This document shows, piece after piece, positions 1,677 through 63,307 of a stretch of 64,000 nt of DNA; the stretch's first letter is position 1; the number at the start of each line of letters is the position of its first letter. A model generated the notes under the pieces. The model ran no database searches, had not been told where the DNA came from, and saw nothing but the letters and a program-made list of their open reading frames with translations. The stretch covers positions 928,001 to 992,000 of the forward strand of contig CM000435.1 in assembly GCA_000165345.1 (NCBI GenBank), read 5' to 3'. Made by a program: the position numbers and the translations under genes.

Positions 1677-1688
1677 TGGCGCCAACGT
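1677..1688. promoter_or_regulatory. E2F-like palindromic element TGGCGCCAACGT, upstream of the UTP7-like gene.
   Basis: The GGCGCC core lies in AT-rich intergenic DNA about 170 bp upstream of the ATG at 1509. The same 12-mer recurs at 33505..33516, and in reverse-complement form at 63294..63307. Confidence 0.5.
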
Positions 1689-2105
1689 GCCATAAAATCT
1701 ATAATTAAAAAATATGTTAACTTGGGCTTTAGAATACTGCCTCAGCCTATTGAAGATTAAAGTATATGTTCAAAATATAAAATCAATCTTGTTTTTATTT
1801 TTCAGATTCGTTGAAAAAGTACTGCAATTGCTTCGAATTTTGATTTTCGCCTAAACATTTAGTTAAGTAAATTTCATCACCTCCCCCCCCTGGCTGAAAA
1901 CAGTAGGACCCAAAAATAAAGCGTTTCTTCCAGTACTCTATATGGGTAAATATATTATTCTGGTCGCATTCTACTAGAACTATTTTCTTATTTTCGGGTT
2001 CGGGATCTTTGATGTCGTGGACTACGCTTAGACAGGTATTTGAATATATATGTCGAACGATACTTCCTAAGGATGAGTGTTAACAATTGTGGGAAAATAC
2101 TAATT

Positions 2106-3350
2106 CTAGATAAACTTACTTTCATTGTCAATGTAGAATATTTGTGCATTTTCATTTGGTTTACATTCTGATAACTTTAACTCGAAATTCTTTTCTCCAC
2201 TTTTTTTCTCGTTCCCAATTAAAGTGAAGCATTTACCATTACCACTAAAAACTATTTGACTTCTTGGATATTCTATTAGTCCAAATTCGCTCAACTCATT
2301 ATAAAATTTTGAAGTAAATATTAACTTTTGGTCACATTCATACTCTTTAATGAGTTCCTTACGTTTATTTATCAATACCTCAAATAATCCTGATGATAGT
2401 TTCATATAGTTAGCCAGCTTCTCACTATTATTCATAATCATCTGCTTGGTTGGCTCATCTATCCAAGATTCCAATAGAACTTGTCTTATTTCTAACGAAG
2501 GTTGTGGAATTTTTACCTTAGTTACACCAAATGACAGTTCTGCTATCTGAGCTACTCGCCCACCACAATTCCATGATCTTAGAGAAATATCAAAGTTAAT
2601 ACTCGTTTTGAATATCAGGTTAATTGTTGGATCTGAAAGTTTTGATATATTTAACCACCATGATTTTGTTATTGCAAAGATTTTTGAATAGAACATTGGA
2701 ACTTTATTATCTAATGTATGGATATTTGTTAATTCAAATTCTTTTGTGAACATCATTTTTGGTGAATATACAGGATCATTATTCGAAAATGTCCATTTGT
2801 CTTTATTCAATTTTTTAAATCTTGGAACTATTATTGATTTATAATTATCACTTAAACTCCTCATTATTGGTGACATCCAATTTTTTGGAAAAAGAGTTGC
2901 AGATGGAACAAATAAAATGATTTCCCCAGTTGAATTGTTTGCTCCAAGATTCTGTAATTCTCCTAATTCTTGTAGTTCAGTCTCAATTATTTTAATCAAA
3001 GGTTTATCCAAGAATTTCTCACCCAAATGACTTTTAATATCTTTTCCAGAGTCTCGACAATCATTTGAAATAATTATTATTTCGTGAAGTAAATTTCGAT
3101 TTGCAGTCAAAAGTATACTATTTATTGTAACATCAATCAATTCATTATCTTCACAGTCTGGTATTATTACAATTGAAAAAATATCTGATTTTCCATATAA
3201 TCCAGCATATTCATTTTCTTCCAACCAAGAGTTTATTAATTCTCTAGGTAGTGTTGTAAACTCTTCTTTTGACCCAAAAACAAAAGTAGTCAATGCAACT
3301 TTCAACATCAAATAACATATTGCCAGCCCGAGAGGGAATGCATTCCTCAT
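2106..3350 (-). CDS. Divergent GT27-fold protein resembling a polypeptide GalNAc-transferase. It lacks the DxH motif and the lectin domain, so it is probably a pseudo-glycosyltransferase or has altered activity.
   Basis: The ORF-track start at 3392 is TTG; the first ATG is 3350 (MRNAFPLGLAICYLMLKVALTTFVFG, a signal anchor). By eye the GT-A core aligns to the bona fide ppGalNAc-T at 8766..10679: SIVIIPDCEDNELIDVTINSILL…HEIIIISNDC against SVIIVFYNEPFSTLMRSVHSVLN…DEIILVDDGS, and WNCGGRVAQIAELSF against WGTENLELSFRVWMCGG. The catalytic DSH is replaced by PSA. Confidence 0.5.
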   Translation of the reverse strand: MRNAFPLGLAICYLMLKVALTTFVFGSKEEFTTLPRELINSWLEENEYAGLYGKSDIFSIVIIPDCEDNELIDVTINSILLTANRNLLHEIIIISNDCRDSGKDIKSHLGEKFLDKPLIKIIETELQELGELQNLGANNSTGEIILFVPSATLFPKNWMSPIMRSLSDNYKSIIVPRFKKLNKDKWTFSNNDPVYSPKMMFTKEFELTNIHTLDNKVPMFYSKIFAITKSWWLNISKLSDPTINLIFKTSINFDISLRSWNCGGRVAQIAELSFGVTKVKIPQPSLEIRQVLLESWIDEPTKQMIMNNSEKLANYMKLSSGLFEVLINKRKELIKEYECDQKLIFTSKFYNELSEFGLIEYPRSQIVFSGNGKCFTLIGNEKKSGEKNFELKLSECKPNENAQIFYIDNESKFI

Positions 3351-63064: not shown

Positions 63065-63293
63065 CTTTAAAGCTCTTCAGGTCTTTTCTTTAGAATTCCG
63101 ATTACCTTGAATGGAGGGCAAATTTAAAATATAGGTATTGTCCACCTCTTATAGAAACTATCTAATAAATTTGAGCATACAGGAAATTAAATTCCTATTA
63201 AATCTACTAAAGGGAGATGATCATGAAGTGTTTCTTTTTTTTTTCTTGAAATTTAATCACTTTTGACCATTTTCTAGTGTGTGCATGAGCACA

Positions 63294-63307
63294 ACGTTGG
63301 CGCCAAA
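63294..63307. promoter_or_regulatory. E2F-like ACGTTGGCGCCAAA element upstream of the myosin gene.
   Basis: About 235 bp upstream of the myosin ATG at 63064. It is the reverse complement of the 12-mers at 1677 and 33505. Confidence 0.45.

Follow-up and report, generated by a model that had tools for sequence, protein, structure and literature searches.

Does the short GC-rich word that recurs between the genes of this region mark a regulatory element, and if so, which one, and how far does it extend? The window, the whole 64,000-nucleotide stretch of DNA analyzed here, had been ascribed to an apicomplexan in the original prediction, which is correct and can be made more precise: it belongs to Cryptosporidium parvum, with 99.99% identity to the C. 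parvum assembly GCA_035232765.1 and 97.7% to C. tyzzeri. Strict cores were defined as SGCGCS or GGCGGG, distances to start codons were taken from a gene map refined with annotated relatives, and conservation was followed in seven other Cryptosporidium species, in orthologous spacers from loci recovered through TCP-1, MFS transporter, and BING4 homologues with flanks of up to 10 kb.

The word GGCGCC is present in ten copies in the window relative to 1.0 expected from shuffled sequences, and none of 100 shuffles reached that number. Nine of these copies, and 17 of the 18 strict cores, are intergenic. The top intergenic words in an unbiased k-mer scan are TGGCGCCA (z = 48), TTGGCGCC (z = 38), and GGCGGGAA (z = 24). 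All 19 sites listed in the original prediction carry the sequence given for them and are positioned between genes, while one site, the GGCGGG at 57937, had been omitted [Table 1]. These 19 sites and the one at 57937 fit [A/T][C/G]GCGC[C/G][A/T] or TTTGGCGGGAA / TTCCCGCC, either exactly or with one base off.

Table 1. E2F-like sites in the window, the genes they face, and their state in orthologous spacers. Strands of genes are given in parentheses.
Position	Strand	Sequence	Setting	Orthologous spacers
1677..1688	.	TGGCGCCAACGT	Core TGGCGCCA, 169 bp upstream of BING4/UTP7-like gene (−, ATG near 1508)	Core and second GCGC kept in 5 species; C. canis with one core substitution
1671-1674		GCGC	Second GCGC, adjoins the 1677 site	
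5212..5220	.	TTGGCGCGC	150 bp upstream of NSUN-type methyltransferase gene (−)	Site in meleagridis, canis, felis
6613..6620	.	TGGCGCCA	Sole site in 210-bp divergent WD40/PP2C spacer; 76 and 135 bp to the two ATGs	Kept in meleagridis, canis; partly in felis
6774..6779	.	GGCGCC	In PP2C CDS (codons 9-11); negative control, not an element	
10717..10731	.	AAAAGGCGCCTAAAA	42 bp upstream of ricin-domain glycosyltransferase gene (−)	E2F-like site in tyzzeri, meleagridis, canis, xiaoi
12143..12150	.	TAGCGCCA	Degenerate; 164 bp upstream of RING-finger gene (−)	CGCGCCACAT in C. andersoni, 130 bp upstream of the RING gene there
12491..12498	.	TGGCGCCA	79 bp upstream of sigma-adaptin gene (+, ATG near 12570)	TTGGCGC in tyzzeri, xiaoi
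16995..17008	.	GCCGGCGCGCAAAC	129 bp upstream of P-type ATPase gene (−)	TTGGCGC in xiaoi, andersoni
17379..17389	+	TTTGCGCGGGA	Asymmetric E2F-type; 64 bp upstream of Rpb4 gene (+)	
23014..23025	−	TTTCCCGCCAAA	Motif-4-type; 110 bp upstream of 610-aa gene (−)	In tyzzeri; as GCGCCAA in andersoni
26079..26091	+	TTTAGGCGGGAAA	Motif-4-type; 180 bp upstream of NIF/BRCT phosphatase gene (−)	GGCGGG in 7/7 species examined, andersoni included
28496..28505	.	TTTGGCGCCT	Divergent unk606/HisPhos spacer; 188 bp to HisPhos ATG, 419 bp to unk606 ATG	Found in 6/7 species
33505..33516	.	TGGCGCCAACGT	267 bp upstream of 1113-aa gene (−); within ~225-bp highly conserved non-coding block	Core invariant across 4 species
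33860..33868	−	TTCCCGCCG	Motif-4-type; 218 bp upstream of MFS transporter gene (+)	Kept in meleagridis, canis; ubiquitum with one substitution
35798..35807	.	AGGCGCCAAT	~100 bp upstream of 344-aa gene (+, ATG near 35899)	GGCGCC kept in 4 species
37175..37185	.	AGCGCCAAAAT	Degenerate; 227 bp upstream of CAP-domain gene (+)	Full GGCGCC or TTGGCGCC in meleagridis, ubiquitum, canis
42521..42531	−	TTTCCCGCCTA	Distal, motif-4-type; 441 bp upstream of 343-aa gene (+)	Found in meleagridis, canis
42855..42866	.	AAGGCGCCAAAC	Proximal; 107 bp upstream of 343-aa gene (+); abuts AAACTA (published motif 14)	Found in 4 species
44049..44059	−	GTTCCCGCCGA	Motif-4-type; 148 bp upstream of 594-aa gene (+)	CCCGCC kept in 4 species
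57937..57942	+	GGCGGG	116 bp upstream of 3242-aa gene (−)	
63294..63307	.	ACGTTGGCGCCAAA	Core 230 bp upstream of myosin gene (−); third copy of the 12-mer	

The position of the cores relative to the genes is not random. A strict core is found in 15 of the 21 spacers with a gene 5′ end and in none of the six convergent spacers (Fisher p = 0.003); at the level of base pairs, the 5′ bias in the window alone is marginal (p = 0.053). In a pool of eight species, which are not phylogenetically independent, the 40.9 kb of 5′ spacer contains 69 cores, the 202 kb of CDS seven, and the 5.4 kb of convergent spacer none. The comparison of upstream and downstream intergenic DNA, suggested genome-wide in the original prediction as a check, comes out in its favor on the window and the pooled species. 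Moreover, sequence beyond the window (17 kb) has three further GGCGCC sites, each of them within a 5′ spacer. As to distance, the earlier estimate of at least 15 start codons stands (about 19 were found), while the proposed range of 20–250 bp becomes 42–267 bp to the nearest ATG that is faced; the exception is the outlier at 42521, for which a closer site, 42855, is available in the same spacer. In tandem spacers, a 5′ role is inseparable from a 3′ role, and these spacers, too short to discriminate, show no clear bias of the sites toward the downstream ATG versus the upstream stop. The element is not universal, as five 5′-end spacers lack an E2F-like site in every species examined.

The core corresponds to a published motif. 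Upstream motifs 3 (DTTGSCGCCH) and 4 (TTTGGCGGGAAV) were described in C. parvum by Oberstaller et al. 2013, in 114 and 47 clusters, respectively, with the E2F motif 5′-TGGCGCCA-3′ as the most over-represented upstream motif (PMC3734150); according to the same paper, Bankier et al. 2003 had been the first to notice it, on chromosome 6. A 2025 review gives the form 5′-[A/T][C/G]GCGC[G/C][A/T]-3′ (PMC12246861). Of 200 co-expression clusters, 161 have the E2F-like motif upstream, and the set of ApiAP2-bound motifs does not include it (PMC4117751). In ATAC-seq peaks from sporozoites it is likewise the motif that stands out most, and over half of these peaks are bidirectional promoters (bioRxiv 10.1101/2025.01.17.633476). 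Over-representation of these same upstream motifs across Cryptosporidium species has previously been reported in aggregate (PMC5146892). The sites in the window are instances of this published E2F-like motif, and the core finding is a rediscovery because it matches both the Oberstaller 2013 motif and the open-chromatin motif of the 2025 preprint. Nothing substantive differs from motifs 3 and 4: the organism, the sequences, and the upstream location are the same, and the palindromic form occurs alongside the GGCGGG form (PMC3734150). What is added here is conservation followed site by site in orthologous spacers of eight species, together with a measured width of the core. The initial reading of the core as an E2F/DP-type site agrees with motifs 3 and 4 (PMC3734150) and is upheld by the comparison of 5′ and convergent spacers and by the conservation discussed below.

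The sites recur at the same places in the orthologous spacers of the seven other Cryptosporidium species, out to C. andersoni [Table 1]. Over 14 sites, 67 of the 84 cells of the 6-bp core (80%) are invariant, relative to a spacer background of 0.405 (p = 2e-13). Invariance drops to background within 2 nt of the core, and at positions +8 and +9 the mean over the 14 sites is 14% relative to 40% for the background. Purifying selection acts on the 6-bp core and does not extend beyond ~1–2 flanking bases. The GGCGCC at 6774, in the CDS, is not conserved; its synonymous Ala codon is GCG, GCA, GCC, and GCT across four species. The conserved block around the 33505 site (33335-33560) was also considered as a candidate structured RNA, for which there is no support: the RNAalifold structure is weak, lacks compensatory pairs (0), and comes from sequences that are too similar to discriminate, and an Rfam scan of the entire window at gathering thresholds gave no match. 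The ORFs in the block are short and unconvincing. Scans of the window returned no tRNA and, with Pfam, no E2F gene and no DP gene.

How far the element extends is a question raised by three of the sites. The original prediction noted that these share a 12-mer and proposed that it is part of a longer palindrome, ACGTTGGCGCCAACGT. The 12-mer, TGGCGCCAACGT, is indeed present in exactly three copies (1677+, 33505+, and 63294−) relative to 0.02 expected, a recurrence that is statistically unusual; origin from a dispersed repeat was rejected, with no similarity beyond the 12 bases. The palindrome, on the other hand, was not found: the window holds 0 copies, its three best matches are 13/16 with all mismatches on the opposite arm, and 16 related loci likewise hold 0 copies. 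The ACGT flank is thus one-sided at all three sites. Counts of flanks and 12-mers were pooled over ~81 kb of C. parvum and ~150 kb of relatives. For the 63294 site, the exact protein of the neighboring myosin gene matches C. parvum contigs only. At 1677, the flank is ACGT, ACGT, ATTT, GGTT, and AGAA in five species, with the core retained; at 33505, it is CGT, CGT, CCC, and GCC in four species and constitutes the sole variable spot in an otherwise invariant stretch of ~90 bp. In the 81 kb of C. parvum, AACGT is next to the core in three of 26 half-sites, nominally a large excess over chance; when sets of 26 half-site flanks were simulated 20,000 times, three or more occurrences of one CpG-containing 5-mer flank were never obtained. 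The same flank is seen in 0/36 half-sites of the species ubiquitum, canis, and felis, and meleagridis has it only at the two orthologous sites. For scale only, three copies per 64 kb would correspond to roughly 400 in the 9.1-Mb genome. The constrained element does not include the ACGT extension.

Could the three copies nevertheless represent a distinct longer element, that is, one half of the 16-bp palindrome, or an E2F site combined with an ACGT core for a second factor, marking a special subclass of promoters? The excess over expectation and the simulation speak for such an element, and the outgroup states suggest that 1677 and 33505 gained ACGT separately, both within the parvum/meleagridis lineage. 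We consider it very unlikely, given the lack of any palindrome copy in the window and the 16 loci, a flank that is one-sided and inconsistently oriented to the nearest gene, and its divergence between species at the two sites compared (33505 and 1677) where the core is kept. The low invariance at +8 and +9 points in the same direction, as do the 0/36 half-sites and 0/3 extra C. parvum sites outside the window with AACGT, and the AACGT variant resembles none of the 25 published motifs (PMC3734150). A distinctly unlikely scenario is that TGGCGCCAACGT is a young composite element of the C. parvum/C. meleagridis lineage, in which pre-existing E2F cores at at least two promoters (1677, 33505, and perhaps 63294) independently gained ACGT; the nominally improbable threefold recurrence, the apparently independent origins, and the lack of conservation beyond meleagridis are all compatible with such a recent origin. 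If true, this young composite would reflect a recent flank preference of one E2F/DP pair, or an ACGT-core partner factor marking a small promoter subclass. Short of a genome-wide count, the 16-bp palindrome should not be followed up as an element in its own right.

Which factor, then, reads the 6-bp core? With a probability of roughly 0.8, the sites are the published Cryptosporidium E2F-like cis-element, acting at the DNA level as promoter elements bound by the parasite E2F/DP. The element would have a consensus of ~8 bp, [A/T][C/G]GCGC[C/G][A/T], usually with T-rich/A-rich flanks (TTTGGCGCCAAA), and a second, asymmetric form (TTTGGCGGGAA / TTCCCGCC). Placed in short spacers before genes, typically 40–270 bp from the start codon, it would most likely be bound by E2F/DP winged-helix heterodimers that mark or open the promoter; binding by E2F/DP itself is our inference here. 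Since the commonest form is palindromic, the element is expected to work in either orientation, and in a very short divergent spacer one site could serve both genes. Bidirectional action, as proposed originally, is plausible for the 210-bp divergent spacer with its single site at 6613. Of the four longer divergent spacers with sites, three carry two, one near each gene, so that bidirectional action is not required there. In the preprint, promoters typically have one motif each and are often bidirectional (bioRxiv 10.1101/2025.01.17.633476), and the short divergent spacer of the window likewise has one site. Polycistron 5′ ends carry the motif in the same preprint; in the window, known from sequence alone, some downstream genes in same-strand runs are without a site of their own.

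The canonical E2F/DP site (TTTSGCGCSAAA; TTTCCCGCC in plants and animals) likewise has a 6-bp symmetric CG core with T-rich/A-rich flanks and a promoter-proximal position, and the asymmetric TTTCCCGCC variant is common to the canonical E2F/DP site and the C. parvum motif (PMC3734150). However, the animal and plant site marks a cell-cycle regulon, whereas the C. parvum motif fronts most genes of all kinds (15/21 5′-end spacers here; 161/200 clusters, PMC4117751). Most E2F partners, e.g., the Rb-family, are reported absent from C. parvum (PMC3734150), and binding by the parasite E2F/DP is putative in the present case. Among apicomplexans, E2F/DP is reported to be retained only in Cryptosporidium, and C. 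parvum has two E2F and two DP genes (PMC12246861). The E2F genes are cgd1_1560 and cgd6_1430, and one DP gene is cgd7_3650 (PMC12246861); the second DP is named in bioRxiv 10.1101/2025.01.17.633476. Experiments have confirmed very few of the regulatory components proposed (PMC12246861).

In an alternative reading, the promoter element is real, and either a different factor than E2F/DP reads it, or DNA structure accounts for most of its action, the GC-rich core forming an island that excludes nucleosomes in AT-rich spacers. The cores are small GC-rich islands amid spacers of 23–36% GC, and no direct assay of Cryptosporidium E2F/DP binding to the motif (ChIP, EMSA, or PBM) was found in PMC3734150, PMC4117751, PMC12246861, or bioRxiv 10.1101/2025.01.17.633476. 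Conservation, however, tracks base identity in the 6-bp core and not GC content, with the positions just outside at or below background, and the palindromic and asymmetric GGCGGGAA forms both fit canonical E2F/DP sites such as TTTCCCGCC (PMC3734150). In addition, the motif lies outside the ApiAP2-bound set (PMC4117751), and Cryptosporidium, the sole apicomplexan genus reported with E2F/DP, is also the sole one dominated by the motif. Collectively, these data make a different reader, or a purely structural role, unlikely. That the recurrence is an artefact of composition or chance, for which the small sample and nothing else could be invoked, is so improbable that it can be set aside: it is ruled out by the shuffles (0/100 reach the count), by z-scores of 24–48, and by the recurrence across species, where the same spacers carry the motif although these spacers are otherwise only ~40% invariant.

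The E2F-like motif is central to gene control in Cryptosporidium, a major agent of childhood diarrhoea, and no promoter motif is commoner in the sole apicomplexan genus reported to keep E2F/DP. As its importance is already established in the literature, the present finding brings no new biology. What it adds is modest: individual sites are retained at orthologous promoters throughout the genus, including the gastric species C. andersoni, and the unit under constraint is merely ~6–8 bp wide.

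The recurrent GGCGCC element is real and strongly non-random. All 19 positions in the original prediction carry the sequence reported for them and are intergenic, and on the refined gene map these sites lie 42–267 bp from the nearest start codon that they face, the distal site at 42521 being the exception. The window contains 10 copies of GGCGCC relative to an expectation of 1.0, a number that none of 100 dinucleotide shuffles reached. Moreover, 17 of the 18 strict cores ([C/G]GCGC[C/G] or GGCGGG) are intergenic, even though the ORF map behind this figure makes 79% of the window coding. 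In an intergenic k-mer scan made without prior motif assumption, TGGCGCCA came out on top (8 copies versus 0.03 expected; z = 48), followed by TTGGCGCC and GGCGGGAA.

The window has a G+C content of ~35% and is dense with long, mostly intron-free eukaryotic genes, among them those for TCP-1, a P-type ATPase, PP2C, myosin, and a CAP-domain protein. Its DNA is 99.99% identical to a GCA_035232765.1 contig and 97.7% identical to Cryptosporidium tyzzeri, while the TCP-1 zeta protein matches its C. tyzzeri counterpart at 100% identity. The DNA is thus that of C. parvum or of a form hardly separable from it, and coordinate arithmetic places the window at ~969–1,033 kb on CP141124.1. Gene order is kept from C. 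parvum out to C. andersoni, a gastric and distantly related species. The gene map was ORF-based and then refined with annotated loci of relatives, which brought in features of small or spliced genes: sigma-adaptin, SecE, a 125-aa gene, a glycosyltransferase 3′ exon, and the true start of a 344-aa gene. A BING4/UTP7-like gene (left) and a 224-aa gene (right) cross the window ends. Because of the glycosyltransferase exon, the spacer holding site 1677 is only ~290 bp long and not ~600 bp.

Features of the window (window positions).
Feature	Position	Detail
Extended E2F-like sites	1677, 33505, 63294	TGGCGCCAACGT
Distal E2F-like site	42521	441 bp from start codon
GGCGGG core	57937	116 bp upstream of 3242-aa gene; absent from the original prediction
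Coding GGCGCC	6774	PP2C codons 9–11
Intergenic E2F-like sites with TGCAT/ATGCA	33506, 33862, 35799, 63299	13–18 bp from core centre
Module upstream of BING4	1626–1675 (−)	TGGCGCCA, two bases, second GCGC, then TAGACGG, TGTAAACTGTGACA
Motif 14 (MAACTA) abutting GCGC core	42857–42870	GGCGCCAAACTAAG
Motif 14 (MAACTA) abutting GCGC core	1665–1675 (−)	GCGCTAAACTAG
Non-coding block, unk1113/MFS divergent spacer	33335–33560	~225 bp; invariant hairpin-like CCTTGAAAAACAAGG, E2F core 33505, TGCAT word
Poly-T tract, unk1113/MFS spacer	33780–33815	~20 T; length varies between species
5′ spacers without E2F-like site	3351–3544, 17848–18188, 19116–19388, 23961–24111	absent in all species with orthologous locus
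5′ spacer without E2F-like site	45982–46707	absence covers C. parvum only
Glycosyltransferase	2106–3350 (−)	414-aa ORF; annotated as 500–503 aa in C. meleagridis, C. canis, C. felis
Glycosyltransferase 3′ exon	1797–2105	accounts for the longer annotated protein in these species
Genes without Pfam domain	21072–22904, 26257–28077, 29897–33238, 42962–43993, 44197–45981	syntenic annotated orthologues in other Cryptosporidium species examined
Gene without Pfam domain	46708–47736	
3242-aa gene	48093–57821	likewise no Pfam match on record

In a genome this compact, most spacers lie behind one gene and ahead of another, which leaves only convergent (3′–3′) spacers as an informative comparison for spacers containing a gene 5′ end. 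A strict core is present in 15 of 21 such 5′ spacers and in none of the six convergent spacers of the window (Fisher one-sided p = 0.003); the base-pair-level test of the same contrast is weaker (p = 0.053) because the convergent spacers are short. The 5′-spacer pattern recurs in seven other species; in the pooled set of all eight, whose counts are phylogenetically non-independent, 5′ spacers (40.9 kb) contain 69 cores, convergent spacers (5.4 kb) contain 0, and coding sequence (202 kb) contains seven. Outside the window ends, 17 kb of C. parvum DNA holds three further GGCGCC copies, likewise all in 5′ spacers. The five 5′ spacers that lack a site, several of which come after a same-strand upstream gene with one (e.g., NIF then Band7), would fit a different kind of promoter or else the polycistronic transcription published for C. 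parvum, in which transcripts typically have one E2F motif at the 5′ end (bioRxiv 10.1101/2025.01.17.633476).

In one species after another, an E2F-like site turns up in the corresponding orthologous spacer: all seven species examined, for instance, have GGCGGG ahead of the NIF/BRCT phosphatase gene. All spacers available in three or more species were aligned, and 14 C. parvum cores were scored, leaving out C. meleagridis as too close to inform. Across the six core positions, 67 of 84 cells are invariant (64–93% per position), compared with 40.5% for the spacer background (p = 2e-13), and conservation is back at background within two bases outside the core. The only coding GGCGCC, which serves as a control, is unconstrained, since its synonymous alanine codon reads GCG, GCA, GCC, and GCT in four species. 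Hence the constrained unit is ~6–8 bp, in agreement with the published consensus.

The original prediction extended this unit to a longer, ACGT-flanked palindrome. The 12-mer on which it was built does occur in exactly three copies, but the 16-mer ACGTTGGCGCCAACGT has none in the window and none in 16 related loci; its best matches are the three 12-mer sites (13/16), where the opposite arm accounts for every mismatch, and the flank is therefore one-sided. Nor does the flank point the same way with respect to the nearest gene at all three sites. For the two extended sites covered by the cross-species comparison, 1677 and 33505, the flank varies. At 33505, it reads CGT in C. parvum and C. meleagridis, CCC in C. 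ubiquitum, and GCC in C. canis, these being the only nearby variable positions in an otherwise invariant ~90-bp stretch. At 1677, five species have ACGT, ACGT, ATTT, GGTT, and AGAA, while TGGCGCCA (one substitution in C. canis) is kept together with the adjoining second GCGC and a pair of blocks downstream. Positions +8 and +9, the would-be flank CG, are invariant in 14% of cells over the 14 sites, below background. AACGT flanks none of 36 GGCGCC half-sites in C. ubiquitum, C. canis, and C. felis and none of the three additional C. parvum sites outside the window, and the extended flank resembles none of 25 published motifs. The extended ACGT palindrome is thus not supported. The threefold recurrence is nevertheless statistically unusual: in 20,000 simulations of 26 half-sites, no CpG-containing flank came up three times in identical form. 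The outgroup states suggest separate gains at 1677 and 33505 within the parvum/meleagridis lineage, and a young, lineage-specific flank preference is conceivable.

The best-supported reading is a promoter element that would be read at the DNA level by E2F/DP heterodimers, the predicted binder. Enrichment, location, and constraint were observed here; factor identity and the link to open chromatin come from the literature and inference. The palindromic core would work in either orientation, and the single site in the 210-bp divergent spacer between WD40 and PP2C is well placed to serve both genes. Bidirectional action, as originally proposed, is possible but not general. Among the four longer divergent spacers with sites (576–839 bp), three have two, one by each gene, and the 606-bp spacer between unk606 and HisPhos has one.

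Other sequence features lie near some cores. The block around 33505 is near-invariant in C. parvum, C. meleagridis, C. ubiquitum, and C. canis, far above a ~40% spacer background, and has no Rfam match, covariation, or convincing ORF; possible identities are a 5′ UTR, a dense promoter, and an unannotated RNA. Poly-T, seen in the same spacer, is the second motif of C. parvum ATAC-seq peaks (bioRxiv 10.1101/2025.01.17.633476). Upstream of BING4, site 1677 belongs to a conserved module whose blocks show little or no change across five species, with variable sequence between them; TAGACGG resembles published motif 18, WTAGACR. Of the clusters that contain E2F, 45% also have unknown motif 14 (Oberstaller 2013, PMC3734150). 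TGCAT/ATGCA, the known ApiAP2 "AP2_1" motif, lies at this 13–18 bp distance from six of 22 cores (two in CDS) versus 4.2% of random intergenic positions (p ~2e-4, with the distance window chosen post hoc), and an E2F–AP2 spacing preference is possible.

The E2F-type reading of the core is correct and matches the published C. parvum motif. Noted earlier on chromosome 6 by Bankier et al. 2003, E2F (5′-TGGCGCCA-3′) is the most over-represented upstream motif, with motif 3 (DTTGSCGCCH) reaching significance in 114 co-expression clusters and motif 4 (TTTGGCGGGAAV) in 47 (Oberstaller 2013, PMC3734150). It is upstream of 161 of 200 clusters, outside the ApiAP2-bound motif set (Oberstaller 2014, PMC4117751), and over-represented upstream motifs are common to all Cryptosporidium genomes (Liu et al. 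2016, PMC5146892). In sporozoite ATAC-seq peaks, too, E2F stands out above every other motif, and bidirectional promoters make up over half of these peaks (bioRxiv 10.1101/2025.01.17.633476). A 2025 review, which notes that very few regulatory components are confirmed by experiment, gives the motif as [A/T][C/G]GCGC[G/C][A/T], with two E2F and two DP proteins as the factors assigned to it (PMC12246861). The present result is nothing new in kind and of low interest in that respect: it is a rediscovery of the already published Cryptosporidium E2F-like promoter motif, in the only apicomplexan genus reported to have retained the E2F/DP family (PMC12246861).
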